From Escherichia phage vB_EcoM_01, in sequence record PP129558: DNA of 64,000 nucleotides; one strand, given 5' to 3'. Positions 29,825 through 53,844 of this stretch are shown here, one piece after another. The stretch's first letter is position 1, and each line of letters starts with the position of its first letter. A program made the translations under genes and the position numbers. A model generated the notes under the pieces. The model searched no databases. It was given only the letters and a program-made list of their open reading frames with translations, and was not told the DNA's origin.

Positions 29825-29843
29825 AGTAGCACTCCTTTTAGAA

Positions 29844-29857
29844 GGGGCCGAAGCCCC
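29844..29857 (-). promoter_or_regulatory. Intercistronic GGGGCTTCGGCCCC hairpin, copy 2 of 3
   Basis: Identical to copies at 17803 and 36012. Confidence 0.5.
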
Positions 29858-29861
29858 TTTA

Positions 29862-30362
29862 TTAGTTGTAAGCATCTAAAGTTCCAGAAGTCAGAACTTT
29901 AATTACTCGTTCAGCACGGTTTGGCGTCTGGCTATACCATCGGCTTTTACGCATGTTTTTACCTGCTTGAGTATAATATGCATTGCTGATTAAAGTCAAG
30001 CTATTTTGAAACCCTTCAGCACCTTTTAACCCCAACTGGAAAACCATGTTGATTATTCCCAATTTACGAGTATCACTCACCTTATCATAGATTGGTGATA
30101 AGATAGCACTGTTTTTTATGTCTCTCTTCACTTTTGCAACATCATCAGCAAAGATTTGACGGGCTTCTTTTTCTGTGATAACTCCATTGGTCTTACGACC
30201 AAGAAGATTATCTAAGATTTGAATAGCCTTTGCTTTATCTTTTATTTTAGTCAGAAGGTGTCCTATGCCGACTGTCCAATAACCAAGATGGTCTTGATAA
30301 ACAGTAAGCTTCAGTCCTTCATCGACTCGTAGCATATCAAACTCATCTACTACTTTAGCCAT
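29862..30362 (-). CDS. T4-type lysozyme (endolysin, muramidase)
   Basis: LRVDEGLKLTVYQD ... GYWTVGIGHLLT and SRWYSQTPNRAERVI closely match T4 gene e lysozyme. Confidence 0.85.
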   Translation of the reverse strand: MAKVVDEFDMLRVDEGLKLTVYQDHLGYWTVGIGHLLTKIKDKAKAIQILDNLLGRKTNGVITEKEARQIFADDVAKVKRDIKNSAILSPIYDKVSDTRKLGIINMVFQLGLKGAEGFQNSLTLISNAYYTQAGKNMRKSRWYSQTPNRAERVIKVLTSGTLDAYN

Positions 30363-30524: not shown

Positions 30525-30785
30525 TTACTCCGCAATTTGAGCCATGAGATCACGCAGTTCGGTAAAACCGCCTACGTATGTTACCTCCCCGTTCACTTCA
30601 GACAGAATTTGTGGAAATGTGCGTGGAGGAACTCCGGTAAGATCAACAACTGTTTTAGTCATTGATTCTAAATCATAGTCTTGGTCAAGACTTAAATATT
30701 CAAACTGTTTATTGCGCATGGTTAATAGTTGTTTTGACATTTCACAAAATTGACAGTTAGGTTTACCAAAAATTACAAATTCCAT
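30525..30785 (-). CDS. Glutaredoxin (NrdH/Grx-like redoxin)
   Basis: CQFC active site, TFPQI, GGF motifs. Confidence 0.75.
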   Translation of the reverse strand: MEFVIFGKPNCQFCEMSKQLLTMRNKQFEYLSLDQDYDLESMTKTVVDLTGVPPRTFPQILSEVNGEVTYVGGFTELRDLMAQIAE

Positions 30786-31627
30786 TACCTCTCCTTATTA
30801 AGTAATACTGCTAAAGACTGTTCAATACCTTTATTTAAATCTGATTTTGTAAGATAGTGACTGGTTACTAGTTGTGACTTCACCGGACGTGCTGCTGGAG
30901 CATTATAGGTTGAAGCTGATACCGCCGATATCTTAACAGGTTCTGGCATCTGTGTCAAGATCTTTTCCGCAAACTCCGCCCAAGAAATAAGATGGCTTCC
31001 TGCAAAATGGTAAGTCTTAACAGACCTTGACCAACCTGTTTTTAATACTTCAAAAATAGCTTCTGCTAAATCTGGAGCATATGTTGGACAAGAGAACTGA
31101 TCAGCAACAATAATAAAATCACGTTGTCCATCATTATAGCGAGACAACATGGTTTTTAGAAAGTTATTTCCAAATTCACTATATACCGAGGCTGTTCGAA
31201 TAATATATGCATTTGGATTAACTCCTCGCACCATTTTTTCACCAAGTTCTTTCGTATACCCATAATTGTTTATTGGGTTAGGTGTAGTATCTTCAAAAAT
31301 AGGATGAGAATAATTAAAAATATAGTCTGTAGAAATATGCACAAAATCAATTCTAAGTTTGCTGCACACTGCTGCAATGTTTGCAGGTCCATACGCATTA
31401 ACAGCCAAAGCAGTAGCAAAATCCTGTTCAGCTTTATCTACAGCCGTATAAGCGGCGCAATTAATAACGCCATCTACATAATCTTCAACAATAGCGTTTC
31501 GCACAGCTTCAAAATTTGTAATATCTACACGTTCTTTAGGATAAATTAAAGATACATTTGAAGGAGCCACTTTACGTAAAGCTTGTCCCAGTTGTCCATT
31601 ACCACCCAATACCAGATATGTTAGCAT
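30785..31627 (-). CDS. rmlD: dTDP-4-dehydrorhamnose reductase
   Basis: N-terminal GGNGQLG Rossmann motif, YGYTK (YxxxK), last in rml gene order. Confidence 0.75.
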   Translation of the reverse strand: MLTYLVLGGNGQLGQALRKVAPSNVSLIYPKERVDITNFEAVRNAIVEDYVDGVINCAAYTAVDKAEQDFATALAVNAYGPANIAAVCSKLRIDFVHISTDYIFNYSHPIFEDTTPNPINNYGYTKELGEKMVRGVNPNAYIIRTASVYSEFGNNFLKTMLSRYNDGQRDFIIVADQFSCPTYAPDLAEAIFEVLKTGWSRSVKTYHFAGSHLISWAEFAEKILTQMPEPVKISAVSASTYNAPAARPVKSQLVTSHYLTKSDLNKGIEQSLAVLLNKER

Positions 31628-32187
31628 ACACCCTCGCTACGTAACTGTTGAAAAGATTTAGCCATTGCATCTTTTGTTGATAGAATAGGTTTAAAACCTT
31701 CGTCAAAAATCATATCGAAGCCCCAATCGATCCCTATATCAGGATCATCCCAACGTAAACTTTGTTCACTAGAAGGGTCGTATGGAGTTGTGCATTTGTA
31801 TTCAAAGATAGCATCCATACTCAAAACTATAAAACCATGTGCCAAACCAGGTGGAAGCCAAAACTGCGTATGGTGCCGTGCACGAAGAACAACACCGTCC
31901 CAAGCACCGTAAGTTGGACTATCTTTACGTAAATCTACAGCGAAATCCAAGACTTCTCCGCTTACACAACGAACAAGCTTACCTTGCGGGTTATTTGTTT
32001 GAAAGTGCATTCCTCGCAAAACACCGAAGTTTGATTTAGACATGTTATCTTGAACGAAAGTTTGTCTACCAATGATATCTTCGTATTTTTGTTCATTATA
32101 TGTTTCTAAAAAGAAACCACGATCATCTTTATAAACATCTGGTTTGATAATTACCGCACCTTCAATTTTTGTTTTTTCTACTTTCAT
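31621..32187 (-). CDS. rmlC: dTDP-4-dehydrorhamnose 3,5-epimerase
   Basis: [15 protein letters not shown] motif; ATGA start/stop overlap with rmlA. Confidence 0.7.
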
Positions 32188-33062
32188 TTTCTCTCCGCTA
32201 ATTTGAGTAGGTATTGCCCGTACTCTGTTTTCTTCAGTGAGTTTCCATGATATACCAAAGTCTCTAAAGAAATCCACCCTTTTTTGAAAGCAATTTCTTC
32301 CAGGCACGCAATCTTCAATCCTTGACGGTTCTCAATAGTCTGCACGAATTGACCAGCTTCCATCAGACTGGCGTGTGTTCCTGTGTCAAGCCAAGTAAAT
32401 CCTCGTCCGAGAACTTCCACTTGTAACTTCCTGTCTTCGAGGTAGCTGCGATTGATATCTGTGATCTCCAGTTCTCCACGCGCGGAAGGGGTTACTTCTA
32501 ATGCACGTTGAACAACAGAGTTATCATAGAAATACAAACCTGTGACAGCATAATCTGATTTAGGATTTTCAGGTTTCTCTTCAATAGAAATAGCTTGACG
32601 ATTACTCCCAAATTCAACCACACCAAATCGTTCAGGATCTTTCACCAAATACCCGAAGATACAAGCTCCGCCACAAACATCTACCATCTCACTGGCGTTA
32701 ATCAGTAGTTTACCAAAGCTTTGTCCGAAGAATAGGTTGTCACCTAAAATAAGAGCAACAGAGTCTTCTCCGATAAAATCTTTACCGATGATGAAAGCGT
32801 CCGCAAGACCTCGTGGCTCGGATTGGATTGCGTAAGTGAGTTTTATCCCAAACATAGACCCATCTCCGAGAAGATACTCAAAGTCTTCCTGATCGCCTGG
32901 TGTGGTGATGATTAAGATATCCTTAATGTCAGCCAACATCAATACCGATAAAGGGTAGTAGATCATGGGTTTGTCATACACAGGGAGCAATTGCTTGCTC
33001 ACACTGCGTGTTACCGGATGAAGGCGGGTTCCACTTCCTCCCGCCAAAATAATACCTTTCAT
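32184..33062 (-). CDS. rmlA: Glucose-1-phosphate thymidylyltransferase
   Basis: [19 protein letters not shown]-terminus. Confidence 0.85.
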
Positions 33063-33070
33063 AACCCTCC

Positions 33071-34063
33071 TTAAATCTTCTCACTCCACCATTGAGGGTT
33101 GTTTAAGTACCATTCAATCGTTGAGTAGAGATCTTGTTCAAATGTAGAGTTTGCACTCCAACCCAGTTCAGACTCTATTTTAGAAGGATTGATTTCATAA
33201 CGCAAGTCATGTCCTTTACGATCTTCAACAAAAGTTATCAAGTTGGAAGAAGGGTAGGTTCCTGCTTCTGGATGTACAGTATCCATGTAGTCACAAACCA
33301 TATAGATGATCTCCATATTGGTTTTGGGATTACGTGTTCCAACATTATACGTTTGACCTGGTTCTCCACCTGTTGCCACTTGAAGAATAGCTCGCGCATG
33401 ATCCTCAACAAAAAGCCAGTCTCGCACCTGATCGCCTTTACCATACACCGGAATCTCTTTATTCGTCAAGATACTTGTGATGATTTTTGGGATCAGCTTT
33501 TCTGGATGTTGATAAGGTCCAAAGTTATTGGAGCAGTTGGTTATCACAACAGGTAAACCGTAGGTACGGTACCAAGCTTTCACAAGATGGTCAGATGCTG
33601 CCTTAGACGCACTGTACGGGCTTGAAGGGGCATAAGCTGTCTCTTCGGTAAAGGGAACGCCAGAGTCTGCCATATCACCGTACACTTCGTCTGTGGAGAC
33701 GTGTACGAACATCTTCAGTTTATTTTTTGGGAGGAGCCTTGCAGCTTCCAATAAATTGTATGTACCAATAATATTGGAGTCGATGAAAACTCGTGGATTC
33801 TTGATAGAATTATCCACATGACTCTCTGCCGCTAAGTGAATGATGAAATCGGGATTGCACTCTACTACTAAACTTTTTACTTGGGCTTCGTTTGCCAAAT
33901 CTGTCATGCTTAGTTTAACGTGAGTGATATCGCCTACATTCTCAATATCTGCTGCATAGCTCATCTTATCAACGACAAAAACTTCGTTATTAGGATCTTG
34001 ACAAAGAGAGCGCACCACGGCACTCCCAATAAAACCAAGACCACCTGTTACCAGATAGCGCAT
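33071..34063 (-). CDS. rmlB: dTDP-glucose 4,6-dehydratase
   Basis: TGGLGFIGS Rossmann motif; YSASK catalytic motif. Confidence 0.85.
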
Positions 34064-34072
34064 CAGTTCTCC

Positions 34073-34399
34073 TTACCAGACGTTTTGTGATACTAATGTT
34101 TCAGTTTCAATATTATACTTATTAAGCAGTTCAAAATAGATCTCATTCGCTTTTTTATTTAAGCTTGTGAGGTCTATGGCACAAGCACCACAGCCGCTAC
34201 ACAGCTTGACACCGAAGACACAATCTTCAGGATCTGCATCGTACCACGGGGAAATGTTGTCCAAGCCCAAACCTTCGCAGAGAAACCAATTAAAGTCCCC
34301 ATCGAACTGGTCTTCAACTTGTGGGTCGTCTCCAAATATTTCTTTCCATTTATCATATGGTGCACCCTGTAACATATGCCATTCGATATCAATACCCAT
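34073..34399 (-). CDS. Hypothetical Cys-rich protein
   Basis: CSGCGAC cluster. Confidence 0.4.
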   Translation of the reverse strand: MGIDIEWHMLQGAPYDKWKEIFGDDPQVEDQFDGDFNWFLCEGLGLDNISPWYDADPEDCVFGVKLCSGCGACAIDLTSLNKKANEIYFELLNKYNIETETLVSQNVW

Positions 34400-34695: not shown

Positions 34696-34904
34696 TATTC
34701 CTCCTTAATTATTTCAAACTTGGCAACACCATTTACAATAATATGACCACAAGACATAACTCCTAGCCAAGGATCGCCGTTTTTCTTCAGGCGTTTACCG
34801 AATACATCACAAAAACCATTCTTCATTTCAGAGGCTTCATAAGAAGCCCCTTTGTCAAAAACGTCTTTGAATGTGTCGATTATACCAACACATTTCAAAA
34901 TCAT
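34695..34904 (-). CDS. Hypothetical protein
   Basis: ORF. Confidence 0.35.
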   Translation of the reverse strand: MILKCVGIIDTFKDVFDKGASYEASEMKNGFCDVFGKRLKKNGDPWLGVMSCGHIIVNGVAKFEIIKEE

Positions 34905-35989
34905 TCGAAGTCAAGCTCCTCATCATCAGAGAGATCTTTGTTAGCTGAATTCAATTTGTAGTTAGTTAACTGAATCTCTTGGGCTGCTGACTGAATCAAA
35001 TCAGGATTCAACCATTTTTCCATCCAAGCTAAAGGACTATGTTTAGGTGCTTTAAACTTGGCTTTCATTTTCAATCGACGATAAATAGGGGCAGCATTGA
35101 AATAAACCCACTGTTTAGACAATTCGGCGTTAAGACCTACAATAAAACGCCCTTCACTAAACAGGTAGTCACACCACTGTTCCTCTTGTTCAACAACAGT
35201 GTCGAGAATCAAAGTCAACTCTTCGATATTGTCTTCGTAAATTTTACGCCAAATTGGGTCATGCATCAATGCATCAATTACAGCATAATCCATCTTAACA
35301 TGCAAGATTTCATCTAGCATAATTTTCTGGATCAGTTTACAAGCCCCAACAAACAGTTGTTGTTCTGCCATAGCAAAAGTAGCAGAGAAGGAAGATATAA
35401 ACTGAATACCTTCTAATCCAATCAGGGCTACCATCCCTTTAAGAATCAGCAGTCGAAGTTCATCGTTAGCTTCAATCAATCCTAGAGCATACTTATGACC
35501 AGCTTCTTCCAACTGACCCATGATATCAGCAATGATACCCATACGATTGAAAATTTTATCATTAATCATAATCTGATTGATGACTTCGATTGGATCTGGA
35601 GTACATTGACGGATTATTTCAGAATACGTTAACGCATGGAGAACTTCCATTTCACTCTGCTTCATCATCATAGCACAGGCTTCATTGTTACTCAAGAATG
35701 GAGAGAACAAAGTGATGATTGATTTTGCAAGAGAATCATTTTCCCATTGGAACGATAAGTTTTTAATCATAACATCATAGTTGTTTTTAGAACAAGCTAC
35801 GAAATCTTTACGTGTCTGATCCAGATTGACTTCATTCTCATCCCAATCTTGTGCTTTTTGAAGTTTGTAGAGTTTGTGCATCTCTGGATAAGTTACGTTA
35901 ACAGAATCAAAGATCCCTAATTGTTCCCCTAAAAATACTGGATATTTTCCTGTTTTGTAAACTTCATTGTGTAAATTAATTGCTGCCAT
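34901..35989 (-). CDS. nrdB: Ribonucleotide reductase small (beta) subunit
   Basis: Size and position next to nrdA; assigned mainly by context and family resemblance. Confidence 0.75.
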   Translation of the reverse strand: MAAINLHNEVYKTGKYPVFLGEQLGIFDSVNVTYPEMHKLYKLQKAQDWDENEVNLDQTRKDFVACSKNNYDVMIKNLSFQWENDSLAKSIITLFSPFLSNNEACAMMMKQSEMEVLHALTYSEIIRQCTPDPIEVINQIMINDKIFNRMGIIADIMGQLEEAGHKYALGLIEANDELRLLILKGMVALIGLEGIQFISSFSATFAMAEQQLFVGACKLIQKIMLDEILHVKMDYAVIDALMHDPIWRKIYEDNIEELTLILDTVVEQEEQWCDYLFSEGRFIVGLNAELSKQWVYFNAAPIYRRLKMKAKFKAPKHSPLAWMEKWLNPDLIQSAAQEIQLTNYKLNSANKDLSDDEELDFE

Positions 35990-36011
35990 TTAAAATTCTC
36001 CTCAATAAAAA

Positions 36012-36025
36012 GGGGCCGAAGCCCC
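36012..36025 (-). promoter_or_regulatory. Intercistronic GGGGCTTCGGCCCC hairpin between nrdA and nrdB, copy 3 of 3
   Basis: Hairpin + T-run then GAGGAG RBS and nrdB ATG; duplicated at 37013-37026 by assembly. Confidence 0.5.
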
Positions 36026-36123
36026 TAGTTTCATCACATCTTGCAAGCTTCACAACCACCATCAGAATCTTCTTGTGCTAAAGAGTCTGCTGATTTTGTT
36101 CTACTATTAAGGTAATACAATGA

Positions 36124-37034: not shown

Positions 37035-39275
37035 TCACATCTTGCAAGCTTCACAACCACCATCAGAATCTTCTTGTGCTAAAGAGTCTGCTGATTTTGT
37101 TCTACTATTAAGGTAATACAATGATTTGCCACCCAGTCTAGCAAAATTCAAAATAAACTGCATCTCAGCTTTCACGGATAAACGTCCACCTACCAATTTA
37201 GAATAATCTAGCCAAGAATCACAAGAAATTCCTTGGTCAGTAAACTTGGTAAAGATACCATACATTTCTGCAAGGTCTTTAGCCGGAGTATCCCAGGCAG
37301 ATTGGTAGAACATTTTCAGTTTTTCGTAGTCTGGAACAATAAATAATACACTACCTTTCTGACTTTGTTTATACATAATGGTATCACGAACAGGATACAG
37401 AGAGTTAGTAGTATTGCTTACCAAACTGCTGGACTCATTAGGTGCAATAGCAGCCAATACACTGTTACGGATACCACCTTGTTCAATGATTTCAGCACGT
37501 AAGCCTTCCCAGTCCATTTTAAGATCAAAATTACCGATACTATCTACTGTTTTAGCATAAGTGTCAATTGGTAGCCAACCTTGAGGCCATTTGGTCTTAT
37601 CGATCCATTCTGCATTACCTTTTTCCTTAGCCAGACGCAGAGAGGCTTTTGCCAACCAGAAGTAATGACGTTCTGCAAGTTCATGCATTAATTTTTTAGC
37701 ATAAGCATCTGAATAATTTACAAAATTACTTGCCAAGTAATGCGCTAAGTTTGTAATGCCTACACCAATAGATCTACGTGCTTTAGCAGTTATTTCGTTA
37801 TGTTTAAATGGATAATCCATTGTTTCAATAACGTTGTCAATTGTCAATACAGTGTAGTATGCAACATCTTCATATTCTTCAGGTAATACACGACCAGCAA
37901 CAATAGAAGATAAGAAGCATAAAGCCAATTCTTGATCTTCTGTATTCTCACCAGTAAAGAGATCCGGCATACTGTGGAAAGCTTTAGTTGGTAAGAAGAT
38001 CTCTTGACACAGGTTTGATTGATACACCGTATCCAGGAAAGGTGTATGGTTGTTAACGTTGTCAGCAAAGAACATGTAAATACGTCCTGTTTCTGCACGT
38101 TGAACAATAATCTCTGTCAGAAGATCACGAGCCTTAACAAATTTTTTCTTAATGCGACGACGGCTTACTTTGTCATAAACTGCATCAAACTCTTCTTCAC
38201 TTTTATACAAAGCTTCATAAAGTTCTGGAGCATCATCACAACTAACTAACATCCAATCTTCGTTTTTTGCTGCTCGACGCAAGAATGAACGGTTAACAAC
38301 AATAGAATAATCCAGTTTGTCTACTCGTTTATCTATAGGTGTTGTTGGATTCTTCAGTCGAATCAGATCGTCGAAGTCTGGTTCAAGTATGGTAAAGGTA
38401 ACTGTAGCACTACCTCCACGGCTTGCTTGCTTCGAAGCTCCAACACTATCTTCCATCCATTTCAGATATGGAAGAAGACCACCATGAATAATACGATTAT
38501 TCTTAACACCTTGACCTGTGGCACGAGTTTGAAGATTAACACCAATACCTGCGTTATTTAACGTATACTCATGAGCTAAGTAATTAGCAATGGCTAAAGA
38601 CTCTGCTGTATCGTCTGCGCGGAATAAACAACAAGACGCACTTCCTTTGATTGGAGTTCGTAGAGTTGTCAGATACGGCGATGGCAGATTAATCTTAAGA
38701 TCGCTAACATAAGTATAAAGTTTTTTAATATCTTCTATACGGCGTTCTTTTGGTTGGATCTCCATAACCTTCATTGCGATACCAATGAAAAGAAACTGTG
38801 GAGACTCATGCACAACATCGTTTACTGCATCTCGAATAAGATATTTATCTACCATCTGACGTAAAACAGAATAACCATAAGTTAGATTTTTATTATGCTT
38901 TACAATCTTACCGATTTCTTTGATCTCTTCATCAGTATAATCCATTTTAGCCCAATGTCCACGTTCTACCATATCATGATAAAAGGTATTCAGTGAAGGG
39001 ATACTGTGGTATCCCCCATGAGCCTGTTTGTAAATCATACCCAGAAGAAGTCTTCCTGCCATATCACTGTAAGCTTGTGTTTTCTTGTCAATACACGCTG
39101 CAATCATTGCTTTATGCAGATCACGTGTAGACACACCGTCATAACACCGCTTCACAGCTTCTAATTCAATTTCAGACCAGTTTAGTTTACCTGCTGCAAA
39201 TTCAGACCACTTGCGAAGTTTTTCTGGATTAAACTCCTCTGTCTTACCGTTAGATTTAGTTACAAAACGAATCAA
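37035..39275 (-). CDS. nrdA: Ribonucleotide reductase large (alpha) subunit, class I
   Basis: 746 aa; multiple conserved Cys including C-terminal pair; context with nrdB and glutaredoxin. Confidence 0.8.
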   Translation of the reverse strand: MIRFVTKSNGKTEEFNPEKLRKWSEFAAGKLNWSEIELEAVKRCYDGVSTRDLHKAMIAACIDKKTQAYSDMAGRLLLGMIYKQAHGGYHSIPSLNTFYHDMVERGHWAKMDYTDEEIKEIGKIVKHNKNLTYGYSVLRQMVDKYLIRDAVNDVVHESPQFLFIGIAMKVMEIQPKERRIEDIKKLYTYVSDLKINLPSPYLTTLRTPIKGSASCCLFRADDTAESLAIANYLAHEYTLNNAGIGVNLQTRATGQGVKNNRIIHGGLLPYLKWMEDSVGASKQASRGGSATVTFTILEPDFDDLIRLKNPTTPIDKRVDKLDYSIVVNRSFLRRAAKNEDWMLVSCDDAPELYEALYKSEEEFDAVYDKVSRRRIKKKFVKARDLLTEIIVQRAETGRIYMFFADNVNNHTPFLDTVYQSNLCQEIFLPTKAFHSMPDLFTGENTEDQELALCFLSSIVAGRVLPEEYEDVAYYTVLTIDNVIETMDYPFKHNEITAKARRSIGVGITNLAHYLASNFVNYSDAYAKKLMHELAERHYFWLAKASLRLAKEKGNAEWIDKTKWPQGWLPIDTYAKTVDSIGNFDLKMDWEGLRAEIIEQGGIRNSVLAAIAPNESSSLVSNTTNSLYPVRDTIMYKQSQKGSVLFIVPDYEKLKMFYQSAWDTPAKDLAEMYGIFTKFTDQGISCDSWLDYSKLVGGRLSVKAEMQFILNFARLGGKSLYYLNSRTKSADSLAQEDSDGGCEACKM

Positions 39276-53463: not shown

Positions 53464-53844
53464 TCCATATTCNGTCTCTTATNNNNNNNNNNNNNNNNNN
53501 NNNNNNNNNNNNNNNNNNNNNNNNNNNNNNNNNNNNNNNNNNNNNNNNNNNNNNNNNNNNNNNNNNNNNNNNNNNNNNNNNNNNNNNNNNNNNNNNNNNN
53601 NNNNNNNNNNNNNNNNNNNNNNNNNNNNNNNNNNNNNNNNNNNNNNNNNNNNNNNNNNNNNNNNNNNNNNNNNNNNNNNNNNNNNNNNNNNNNNNNNNNN
53701 NNNNNNNNNNNNNNNNNNNNNNNNNNNNNNNNNNNNNNNNNNNNNNNNNNNNNNNNNNNNNNNNNNNNNNNNNNNNNNNNNNNNNNNNNNNNNNNNNNNN
53801 NNNNNNNNNNNNNNNNNNNNNNNNNNNNNNNNNNNNNNNNNNNN
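53464..53844. other. Assembly gap (N run) with duplicated flanks
   Basis: 53322-53463 repeats at 53860-54002; AGAGACAG adapter remnant at 53845-53852. Confidence 0.8.

Follow-up and report, generated by a model that had tools for sequence, protein, structure and literature searches.

The genome of Escherichia phage vB_EcoM_01 carries four consecutive rml genes (rmlB-rmlA-rmlC-rmlD) that are predicted from their sequences to encode a working dTDP-L-rhamnose pathway. We tentatively propose that the activated sugar feeds the phage's own glycosyltransferases and that the resulting glycan is placed on virion proteins; we infer both the link and the acceptor, and consider this reading possible, somewhat short of an even chance. 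The stretch analysed here (hereafter, the window) comprises 64,000 nt of record PP129558. The phage is a phAPEC8-like Phapecoctavirus, and published Phapecoctavirus genomes match the window at 98% identity. The features discussed below are listed in Table 1.

Table 1. Positions of the rml genes and neighbouring features in the window.
Feature	Position	Strand	Product or match	Remarks
Phage lysozyme	29862-30362			
Glutaredoxin gene	30525-30785	minus	Pfam PF00462, 38.1 bits	
rmlD	30785-31627	minus	dTDP-4-dehydrorhamnose reductase, 280 aa	
rmlC	31621-32187	minus	dTDP-4-dehydrorhamnose 3,5-epimerase, 188 aa	
rmlA	32184-33062	minus	glucose-1-phosphate thymidylyltransferase, 292 aa	GC 43.3%
rmlB	33071-34063	minus	dTDP-glucose 4,6-dehydratase, 330 aa	GC 42.2%
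108-aa conserved ORF	34073-34399	minus	phrog_15453, function unknown	directly upstream of rmlB
nrdB	34901-35989			
Terminator-like hairpin	36011-36026	minus	AGGGGCTTCGGCCCCT + T run	upstream of nrdB; consensus scan only
nrdA	37035-39275			

A preliminary description of this DNA had proposed a complete RmlB-A-C-D pathway in a phage, to be checked by a profile search of the four proteins. Each protein exceeds the cut-off of its own NCBIfam equivalog: RmlB (TIGR01181, 431.5 bits against 365.1), RmlA (TIGR01207, the short RmlA type, 468.6 against 360.65), RmlC (TIGR01221, 225.0 against 155.75) and, narrowly, by 13 bits, RmlD (TIGR01214, 237.6 against 224.05). The Pfam results agree, and the signature motifs quoted earlier for the four proteins can all be found in the translations. 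The closest solved structures to RmlB are Salmonella RmlB (1g1a, E 6e-112) and E. coli RffG (1bxk); the phage protein keeps the Rossmann GxxGxxG motif, and its STDEVYGD and YSASK motifs align with 1g1a. RmlA is closest to 4ho0 (E 6e-126; 2e-119 for E. coli RffH, 1mc3), aligns over its full length with 4ho0, 1mc3 and 1h5r, and retains the GGSGTRL motif. RmlC matches Salmonella RmlC (1dzr, E 4e-56) and conserves its catalytic residues, namely the His of RGxHFQ (LRGmHFQ), the Lys of GKLVRC and the Tyr of YK. Reading rmlC as a 228-aa ORF with a GTG start was rejected as an over-extension, and the ATG at 32187 yields a protein of RmlC length. With equivalog cut-offs passed, full-length alignments to solved enzymes and catalytic motifs kept, the proposal of a complete pathway was upheld. 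RmlA would join dTTP and glucose-1-phosphate, RmlB would dehydrate the product to dTDP-4-keto-6-deoxyglucose, RmlC would epimerise this at C3 and C5, and RmlD would then reduce it with NAD(P)H to dTDP-L-rhamnose.

The last of these steps is where a different end product might be considered. RmlD is the most divergent of the four proteins (54% identity to phi92). Among solved structures it comes nearest to Firmicutes proteins (Bacillus anthracis 3sc6, E 3e-44, and Clostridium 1vl0), with Salmonella 1kbz reaching only 3e-29; it is closer to Firmicutes-type enzymes, and scores below the enterobacterial RfbD model NF007440 (118.7 against 308). Together with the narrow TIGR01214 pass, these features could fit a Tll-type RmlD-like reductase with the opposite C4 stereochemistry, which would produce dTDP-6-deoxy-L-talose. 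We consider this improbable, as the RmlD equivalog cut-off is nevertheless passed and all PDB matches to E 6e-20 were deposited as RmlD-type dTDP-4-dehydrorhamnose reductases. The motifs GGNGQLG, STDYIF and YGYTK are present, and the latter two align with 3sc6 and 1vl0.

The genes are as tightly coupled as the preliminary description had stated. The start codon of rmlC lies on the rmlA stop codon (ATGA), giving an overlap of 4 nt (32184-32187), rmlC and rmlD overlap by 7 nt (31621-31627), and the spacer between rmlB and rmlA is 8 nt. The placement of the cluster between nrdAB and glutaredoxin/lysozyme also held, the flanking genes having been located in the window by ORFs and profiles. A 1-nt overlap (TAATG) joins rmlD to the glutaredoxin gene, which is predicted to be translationally coupled to it. 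The glutaredoxin probably serves ribonucleotide reductase rather than the sugar pathway; notes in the phi92 record number the nrdB and glutaredoxin homologues of the Vequintavirinae phage PVP-SE1 as gp139 and gp141, two genes apart. On the minus strand, only three weak terminator-like sites, each with 3 G-C pairs and lying inside rmlB and rmlA, were listed between the hairpin at 36011 and another at 29841-29860. The hairpin upstream of nrdB is likely to mark the start boundary of a unit comprising nrdB, small ORFs, rmlBACD, the glutaredoxin gene and lysozyme, and from this arrangement rmlBACD is probably co-transcribed with nrdB and glutaredoxin. A promoter scan around the cluster returned 35 matches, compared with 28 +/- 5 in shuffled sequence, and so showed no excess.

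In 70 phage records the cluster occupies this locus, with 80-99% nucleotide identity; among the 30 phage records listed, identity to the locus was 96.9-98.5%. Across the subfamily Stephanstirmvirinae it occupies the same slot between nrdB and glutaredoxin, and RmlC is present in approximately 129 Stephanstirmvirinae records, compared with 132 that contain the subfamily major capsid protein. The cluster is under purifying selection: dN/dS ranges from 0.01 to 0.3 overall, with values of 0.04 for rmlB (versus phiWec179), 0.03 for rmlA, 0.014 for rmlC and 0.11 for rmlD. The GC content of rmlB-rmlA is 3-4 points above the window mean of 38.8%. Beyond this, nothing pointed to an artefact in which bacterial rfb DNA was mis-assembled into the phage contig. 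The chance of this is negligible, since the locus recurs in 70 independent phage records and is syntenic in other genera, the best E. coli chromosomal identity to it is only ~65%, and the rml genes overlap, and are predicted to be translationally coupled to, flanking phage genes; mis-assembly was ruled out by the 70 records, the synteny with phi92 and the comparison with E. coli genomes. A recent capture from E. coli was likewise ruled out, as none of 5,426 E. coli genomes matched the cluster at more than 80% identity.

The presence of an rml cluster in these phages is already known: annotations date from 2012 and discussion from 2020. All four genes are annotated in phAPEC8 (JX561091) and phi92, and the locus, gene order, flanks and four gene names described here are the same as in phAPEC8 (JX561091 / NC_020079), nieznany, Ro121c4YLVW and ESCO13; there is no difference of substance from phAPEC8 and other Phapecoctavirus clusters. 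The phi92-like phages (Justusliebigvirus) share the synteny nrdA - HNH - nrdB - small ORFs - rmlB-A-C-D - glutaredoxin - lysozyme - PhoH, with Rml proteins that are only 54-71% identical to those in the window at the amino acid level. This level of identity suggests long-standing vertical inheritance of the cluster within the subfamily. The pathway is a textbook one and the therapeutic phage genus is well sampled, so the cluster itself adds nothing new; the sharpened question is what use these broad-host-range phages make of activated rhamnose. Olsen et al. (2020; PMC7552041) described the complete dTDP-rhamnose biosynthesis pathway as "peculiar" and proposed DNA glycosylation, while Maffei et al. 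(2021; PMC8594841) doubted DNA modification, citing restriction sensitivity. Our search of the literature on rhamnose, glycosylation and DNA modification in phAPEC8- and phi92-like phages found hypotheses only and no experimental evidence. A glycostain study that detected no glycoproteins in ten phages (PMC12894461) was given no weight here, as those phages could not be linked to this family. DNA, virion proteins and host surface polysaccharide, the candidates named in the preliminary description, remain the right list of acceptors.

The four genes are not retained equally. Both rmlB and rmlA are absent from approximately 17 of the 64 Phapecoctavirus records, and RmlA at >=90% identity is found in only 47 records, compared with 64 for RmlC at >=95%. 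ESCO37 exhibits a clean loss of rmlB-rmlA with rmlC-rmlD intact (PMC10269720). The window belongs to the allele group with rmlB-rmlA, whereas ESCO37, anhysbys, nepoznato and similar phages are without it. In ESCO37, the 108-aa ORF abuts rmlC, and this ORF thus appears to mark the edge of the rmlB-rmlA insertion/deletion; it occurs as two alleles with ~61% amino acid identity to each other. Compared with phiWec179, the RmlB and RmlA proteins of the window are 94-97% identical and RmlC and RmlD 63-65%, and the sequences indicate that rmlB-rmlA has been exchanged between lineages. The higher GC content of rmlB-rmlA also sets the two parts of the cluster apart.

E. coli makes dTDP-4-keto-6-deoxyglucose via RffH/RffG for enterobacterial common antigen (ECA). 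To our knowledge, RmlC and RmlD occur only in E. coli strains with rhamnose-containing O-antigens. The rmlB-rmlA part of the cluster has a match of ~65% identity in all 5,426 E. coli genomes searched, and nearly all matches in a 30-row sample fall on a chromosomal locus annotated rffG and rfbA. The dispensability of rmlB-rmlA in some phages fits the presence of these host rffG-rffH isozymes. We therefore envisage rmlC-rmlD as a putative indispensable core and rmlB-rmlA as a flux-boosting accessory, which together would supply the infected cell with dTDP-L-rhamnose whatever its O-serotype. This split and the natural isolates lacking rmlBA provide ready-made genetic material for experiment.

The retention of rmlC-rmlD alone in ~17 phages could also reflect a metabolic diversion, in which RmlC/RmlD drain host dTDP-4-keto-6-deoxyglucose from ECA or O-antigen synthesis, or the pathway buffers dTTP, with the glycosyltransferases being unrelated. 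The host intermediate is universal, and the cluster is apparently co-transcribed with nucleotide-pool enzymes. We regard this as very improbable. In most of the phages, rmlA and rmlB persist under strong purifying selection (dN/dS 0.03-0.04), and these genes would raise flux into the pathway and so are not needed for a drain. Additionally, dTDP-rhamnose feedback-inhibits RmlA, so that unused product would shut the pathway down, and the glycosyltransferase module is found in the same genomes as rmlC.

That no glycosyltransferase is recognisable near the cluster, as the preliminary description had noted, applies to the 64-kb window, where none of the 37 larger ORFs scanned gave a match, and none is annotated in the region of EF1-1 that is syntenic to it. 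The statement does not extend to the genome, as EF1-1 contains four tandem glycosyltransferase genes, and in close relatives these lie ~75 kb from rml, adjoining primase/helicase and DNA polymerase genes. The module lies outside the window, and its presence in vB_EcoM_01 itself is deduced from close relatives (97-98% identity). One carrier is Ro121c4YLVW, whose rml region shares 98.4% identity with the window, and the phi92-like phages have the module too. One member, GT-c, occurs in 126 enterobacterial-phage records and shows the same split in identity as RmlC; these records include Ro121c4YLVW and anhysbys, a phage with rmlCD only. The predicted folds are GT-A/GT2-like and GT-B/GT4-like (pLDDT 89.5 and 93). 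Structural comparison gave unspecific matches, among them enzymes of lipid-linked glycans and the T4 DNA glucosyltransferases; a PDB sequence search with three kinds of glycosyltransferase returned nothing useful. Two distant large phages have a gene for an RmlB-like SDR inside the glycosyltransferase module.

These four tandem glycosyltransferases would be the consumers of dTDP-L-rhamnose, building a rhamnose-containing glycan. The candidate acceptors rank as virion proteins, then host envelope glycans, then DNA. The DNA idea of Olsen et al. follows from the position of both modules among replication and nucleotide-metabolism genes, and would entail rhamnose or a rhamnose-containing glycan on a modified base, comparable to the glucosyl-hydroxymethylcytosine of T4. 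In T4, alpha- and beta-glucosyltransferases act on hydroxymethylcytosine and require host UDP-glucose, a dCMP hydroxymethylase and a dCTPase. Unlike in T4, no equivalent of dCMP hydroxymethylase/dCTPase was found in the window ORFs scanned or in EF1-1. More broadly, nothing that could supply hydroxylated bases, such as a dCMP/dUMP hydroxymethylase or a TET/JBP oxygenase, turned up in the 37 larger window ORFs scanned (Pfam) or in the complete EF1-1 annotation, which includes structure-based calls; small or very divergent proteins could escape both searches. The sole find was a divergent ThyX. The phi92-like relatives with these gene sets are reported to be exceptionally susceptible to restriction-modification (PMC8594841, PMC10844046), which, together with the lack of a hydroxymethylase/TET gene, argues against DNA as the acceptor. 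The similarity of the glycosyltransferases to T4 and TAGT enzymes also appears weaker than that to ordinary glycan and protein glycosyltransferases, and in small phages the same module lies beside packaging genes. DNA hypermodification seems rather improbable; a variant in which rare, site-specific rhamnosylation leaves most restriction sites sensitive is conceivable, but less likely than a virion glycan coat.

Alternatively, the phage could remodel the host envelope by adding rhamnose-containing sugars to LPS core, O-unit, ECA or another lipid-linked glycan, masking receptors and so either sparing progeny from adsorbing to debris or keeping out superinfecting phages. We view this as unlikely. 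The annotation of EF1-1 lists no flippase, polymerase, ligase or Gtr-type membrane protein, and GtrA flippase, the bactoprenol transferase GtrB, GtrC and O-acetylase were all absent from this annotation and from the window ORFs scanned. None of the four glycosyltransferases matches a membrane-protein family in Pfam or PHROGs, the phages are strictly lytic with a short cycle, and known seroconversion cassettes differ in appearance. The enzyme families and chemistry are those of bacterial rfb/rml and rff loci (RfbBDAC of E. coli and Salmonella; RffG/RffH of the ECA cluster). However, the gene order is B-A-C-D in the phage and B-D-A-C in those bacteria, nucleotide identity is ~65%, and the phage cluster lies in a nucleotide-metabolism block with no adjoining wzx/wzy or O-antigen glycosyltransferases.

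The preferred acceptor would be one or more virion structural proteins, bearing a glycan coat as in Che8 or chloroviruses. Giant viruses that glycosylate their capsids or fibrils (chlorovirus GDP-fucose/rhamnose, mimivirus UDP-L-rhamnose) do so by UDP/GDP routes of eukaryotic type, not by the dTDP route of bacteria, and with enzymes unrelated to phage Rml. In a tblastn search of a phage database, GT-c had no relatives beyond its own family other than approximately 330 mycobacteriophage glycosyltransferases (E 1e-8 to 1e-5, 25-28% identity over ~130 residues). Those sampled were mostly from cluster F and included the 3'-end glycosyltransferase of Maravista; by this comparison, the relationship to the cluster-F enzymes appears weak but significant. 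Che8, a member of cluster F, carries capsid glycans, according to the statement in PMC11256854 that cites Freeman 2023. We counted these relatives in favour of a virion acceptor, together with the position of the module upstream of terminase and portal genes in small phages. The cluster-F system has no nucleotide-sugar pathway, and glycosylation has been shown for Che8, whereas it is a prediction for the phages described here.

Several observations count against the virion reading. Both modules lie among replication and nucleotide-metabolism genes in Stephanstirmvirinae, the similarity of GT-c to mycobacteriophage proteins is weak (26% over 130 residues), and the structural matches of the glycosyltransferases are generic. 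The glycosyltransferases could also use host UDP-sugars only, with rhamnose going elsewhere. The major capsid protein has no C-terminal extension, sought as a possible glycosylation tail, relative to Vequintavirinae homologues, an observation of little weight. A 92-aa conserved ORF beside GT-a, checked as a possible acceptor, is acidic with no Ser/Thr-rich tract, which speaks neither for nor against that role.

The broader proposal that Stephanstirmvirinae coliphages (phAPEC8-like and phi92-like) coat at least one virion protein with a rhamnose-containing oligosaccharide, using a conserved module of three to four enzymes and their own dTDP-L-rhamnose, is more doubtful, though conceivable. If true, it would provide the first case of a glycosylated virion in phages that infect Gram-negative bacteria, extending phage virion glycosylation beyond mycobacteriophages, and the glycan could affect antibody recognition and clearance of phages used in therapy cocktails. 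The module could also mark a wider, unrecognised class of glycan-coated phages, including smaller phages in which it is found beside the terminase gene. In at least six of these smaller phages, a GT-c/GT-b(/GT-d) module lies 0.2-5 kb upstream of the terminase and portal genes, an arrangement similar to the right-end location in cluster F. In one of them the gene immediately before the module is tail-fibre-like, and in another it is an Ig-domain structural-like ORF.

The four consecutive minus-strand ORFs of Escherichia phage vB_EcoM_01 encode, as the preliminary description had proposed, a complete RmlB-A-C-D pathway for dTDP-L-rhamnose; each exceeds the curated NCBIfam equivalog cut-off of the expected enzyme (see table), and the Pfam domains agree. 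All four proteins align over their full length with Rml enzymes of known structure, and their catalytic residues are kept: RmlB with Salmonella 1g1a (E 6e-112; STDEVYG and YSASK present), RmlA with 4ho0 (6e-126) and E. coli RffH 1mc3 (2e-119), RmlC with Salmonella 1dzr (4e-56; His, Lys and Tyr kept), and RmlD with B. anthracis 3sc6 (3e-44; STDY and YGYTK present). RmlD scores only slightly above its cut-off and falls short of the enterobacterial RfbD model, which leaves dTDP-6-deoxy-L-talose as a minor alternative to dTDP-L-rhamnose. The described tight coupling and setting also hold: rmlA and rmlC share an ATGA overlap, rmlC and rmlD one of 7 nt, the end of rmlD overlaps the glutaredoxin start (TAATG), and the flanking genes are nrdB, nrdA, glutaredoxin and phage lysozyme. 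A longer GTG ORF considered for rmlC was rejected as an over-extension, the real start being the ATG at 32187.

Coordinates of the rml genes and of other features in vB_EcoM_01 (PP129558) and related loci
Feature	Record	Position	Strand	Details
rmlB	PP129558	within 30785-34063	minus	330 aa; TIGR01181, score 431.5 (cut-off 365.1)
rmlA	PP129558	within 30785-34063	minus	292 aa; TIGR01207, score 468.6 (cut-off 360.65)
rmlC	PP129558	within 30785-34063	minus	188 aa; TIGR01221, score 225.0 (cut-off 155.75)
rmlD	PP129558	within 30785-34063	minus	280 aa; TIGR01214, score 237.6 (cut-off 224.05)
108-aa ORF	PP129558	34073-34399	minus	upstream of rmlB; phrog_15453, function unknown; CSGCGAC motif
149-nt direct repeat	PP129558	35975-36123 and 36976-37124		exact; 1001 bp apart
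N-masked runs	PP129558	4019-4609; 36124-36975; 53483-53844
ORF spanning the repeat	PP129558	36034-36990
Annotated FAD-dependent thymidylate synthase	PP129558	40052-41050	minus	332 aa; Pfam Thy1 35 bits, profile positions 59-191
NT5C-like deoxynucleotidase	PP129558	41060-41668		E 5e-5; 23.7 bits (cut-off 24.8)
'Dcm' or 'DNA methyltransferase' of relatives' annotation	PP129558	19771-20496	minus	no Pfam match at E <= 0.01
Neighbour of annotated Dcm gene	PP129558	20844-21785		DUF7277 and DUF7275
SIR2-family protein (PF02146)	PP129558	17824-18624		early region
HslV/proteasome-like peptidase	PP129558	27838-28530		early region
Serine recombinase/invertase	PP129558	10317-10994		early region
tRNA gene cluster	PP129558	56496-58509	plus	11 genes: Met x2, Arg, Ser, Asn, Thr, Gly, Gln, Pro x2, Ile
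Four tandem glycosyltransferases	EF1-1	112.3-115.4 kb
TerD-like block (L004)	EF1-1	116.7-127.3 kb		outside the window
RmlB-like SDR	L006	2667-3737		between GT-d and GT-c
RmlB-like SDR	L020	8622-9683		between GT-d and GT-c

The cluster is not an artefact and is under selection. Mis-joining of bacterial DNA into the contig is ruled out by synteny with phi92 (Justusliebigvirus), by conservation across related phage records and by the lack of any match above 80% identity in 5,426 E. coli genomes. The gene order in phi92 is identical (nrdA, HNH, nrdB, small ORFs, rmlB-A-C-D, glutaredoxin, lysozyme, PhoH), with Rml proteins 54-71% identical in amino acid sequence, and tblastn recovered RmlC in approximately 129 Stephanstirmvirinae-type records and the subfamily major capsid protein in 132. 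According to the phi92 record notes, the homologues of nrdB (gp139) and glutaredoxin (gp141) in PVP-SE1 (Vequintavirinae) are numbered two genes apart, which suggests a Stephanstirmvirinae-specific insertion of the rml genes. The dN/dS values were 0.03-0.04 for rmlB and rmlA (against phiWec179, dS 0.5-0.7) and, against ESCO37, 0.014 for rmlC and 0.11 for rmlD.

The segment matches 70 phage records, among them Escherichia phages nieznany and vB_EcoM-Ro121c4YLVW (98.4% identity); identity is 95-99% for 64 of the records and 80-90% for the other six. Nearly all belong to Phapecoctavirus (Stephanstirmvirinae), whose type phage phAPEC8 is one of them, and carry the same four gene names; from this annotation and from discussion in the literature, the cluster was already known. 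Its interpretation as a pathway is sound. Our literature search found no experimental evidence on the rhamnose acceptor, whose identification is what remains worthwhile; natural isolates lacking rmlBA and a conserved glycosyltransferase module offer handles. Four records labelled Campylobacter jejuni (MG065650, MG065645, MG065656 and MG065689, 'Campylobacter phage B15/A145/C3/A110a') show ~98% identity with Phapecoctavirus phages of E. coli or contain matches to genes of Justusliebigvirus, and their host labels look doubtful.

The two halves of the cluster differ in distribution. Just 47 records have an RmlA that is at least 90% identical, against 64 with an RmlC that is at least 95% identical. 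In ESCO37, rmlB and rmlA are cleanly missing, as has been noted (PMC10269720); rmlC and rmlD remain intact and conserved there, and rmlC directly adjoins the 108-aa ORF located just before rmlB in the window. This ORF has two alleles, only ~61% identical, among phages otherwise 98-100% identical, so that the edge of the rmlB-rmlA indel is also a recombination boundary. Compared with phiWec179, RmlB and RmlA are 94-97% identical, whereas RmlC and RmlD are only 63-65% and NrdB 88% identical, so the rmlB-rmlA pair has passed between lineages. GC content is 42-43% in rmlB-rmlA, 37-38% in rmlC-rmlD and 38.8% in the window.

This split agrees with host biochemistry. The rmlB-rmlA part was matched at ~65% identity in all 5,426 E. 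coli genomes, at a chromosomal locus annotated rffG plus rfbA in nearly all of a 30-row sample, the pair of the ECA cluster usually named rffG-rffH; dTDP-4-keto-6-deoxyglucose is thus always available from the host. RmlC and RmlD are known only from strains with rhamnose-containing O-antigens. We read rmlC-rmlD as the part indispensable to the phage, and rmlB-rmlA as a flux booster.

That no glycosyltransferase is recognizable nearby stands for the window, where Pfam scanning of the 37 larger ORFs returned SIR2, resolvase, HslV-like protease, RNA ligase, phosphoesterases, a divergent ThyX and DUFs, but fails genome-wide in relatives. The complete genome of EF1-1 has four tandem annotated glycosyltransferases (GT-a to GT-d) ~75 kb from the rml genes, between primase/helicase and endolysin genes; they are confirmed by PHROGs (E 1e-78 to 1e-148), and Pfam gave only weak GT1/GT4-type matches. 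GT-c (227 aa) was found in 126 enterobacterial-phage records, which divide by identity as those of RmlC do and include Ro121c4YLVW and anhysbys, a phage with rmlCD only; pathway and module are therefore two near-universal signatures of one subfamily. AlphaFold models of the glycosyltransferases are confident (pLDDT 89.5 and 93), and the predicted folds are those of glycan-building enzymes, which do not name the acceptor. Beyond the module, the EF1-1 record is annotated with a TerD-like stress protein, tellurite resistance, a VWA protein, a phosphoribosyltransferase, a phosphatase and two hydrolases, a block that may be akin to the 'Ter-linked nucleoside-like metabolite' gene sets of Anantharaman, Iyer and Aravind.

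An IMG/VR scan with a GT-c alignment, mapped by tblastn, yielded 27 loci. All large Stephanstirmvirinae-like phages have the order endolysin ... GT-d, GT-c, GT-b, GT-a, 92-aa ORF, primase/helicase, PolA. An RmlB-like SDR (4,6-dehydratase/epimerase family, 29-32% identity to RmlB) interrupts the module in two distant large phages, an arrangement that ties the module directly to nucleotide-sugar modification. Seven loci from smaller phages (six distinct phages, one a prophage of Serratia sp. M24T3) carry GT-c and GT-b, with or without GT-d, 0.2-5 kb upstream of TerS/TerL and portal genes, a placement judged in L034 from ORF sizes only; the module directly follows a tail-fibre-like gene in one and an Ig-domain structural-like ORF in another.

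We rank a virion protein first as the acceptor, tentatively and at somewhat less than an even chance, ahead of the host envelope and then DNA, the remainder being spread over other options. Virion-protein glycosylation fits the late-gene context of the module in small phages and the homology of GT-c to mycobacteriophage enzymes, and giant viruses provide a precedent for viruses that supply both an activated deoxyhexose and the transferases. Apart from members of its own family, GT-c had relatives in the phage database only among mycobacteriophage glycosyltransferases, ~330 in number (E ~1e-8); those sampled were mostly from cluster F, including a 3'-end gene of Maravista, and the capsid of the cluster F phage Che8 bears glycans (PMC11256854, citing Freeman et al. 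2023). No extra C-terminal tail was seen on the major capsid protein. Remodelling of the host envelope, with which the resemblance of GT-a to lipid-linked-glycan enzymes is compatible, is unlikely, given that no flippase, ligase or Gtr-type gene is annotated in EF1-1 and that the phages are lytic.

Olsen et al. (2020; PMC7552041) remarked on the complete dTDP-rhamnose pathway, found its location among DNA-metabolism genes 'peculiar' and proposed that hydroxymethylated nucleotides are rhamnosylated; the restriction-modification sensitivity of these phages is nonetheless exceptional (Maffei et al., 2021; PMC8594841), and both points were restated by Vitt et al. (2024; PMC10844046). DNA glycosylation is also suggested by the gene neighbourhoods of both modules, and the glycosyltransferases resemble TAGT and the T-even beta-glucosyl-HMC alpha-glucosyltransferase at a sub-threshold level. 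We consider it less probable still than envelope remodelling: besides this sensitivity, no enzyme creating a hydroxylated base was found among the scanned window ORFs or in the EF1-1 annotation, and the module also adjoins packaging genes in small phages. Bearing on the same question, the annotated thymidylate synthase is unusually long and matches Thy1 weakly and partially; the deoxynucleotidase-like ORF adjoining it falls just below its cut-off.

The 149-nt repeat flanks and enters an N-masked run; it comprises the initial 15 nt of nrdB, the hairpin between nrdA and nrdB, and the final ~90 nt of nrdA; the ORF that spans it therefore opens with the NrdB residues MAAIN and closes with the NrdA C-terminus. 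The sequence is single-copy in ESCO37, and an HNH endonuclease gene occupies the site in nieznany, EF1-1 and phi92. The repeat may stem from duplication of the 3' end of nrdA in tandem, from insertion of a homing endonuclease whose flanks were duplicated, or from faulty assembly. The masked run at 53483 is likewise the site of an HNH endonuclease gene (phrog_953) in EF1-1, and there are many further masked runs of 1-4 nt. The tRNA cluster lies upstream of the genes for spanin, terminase and portal.
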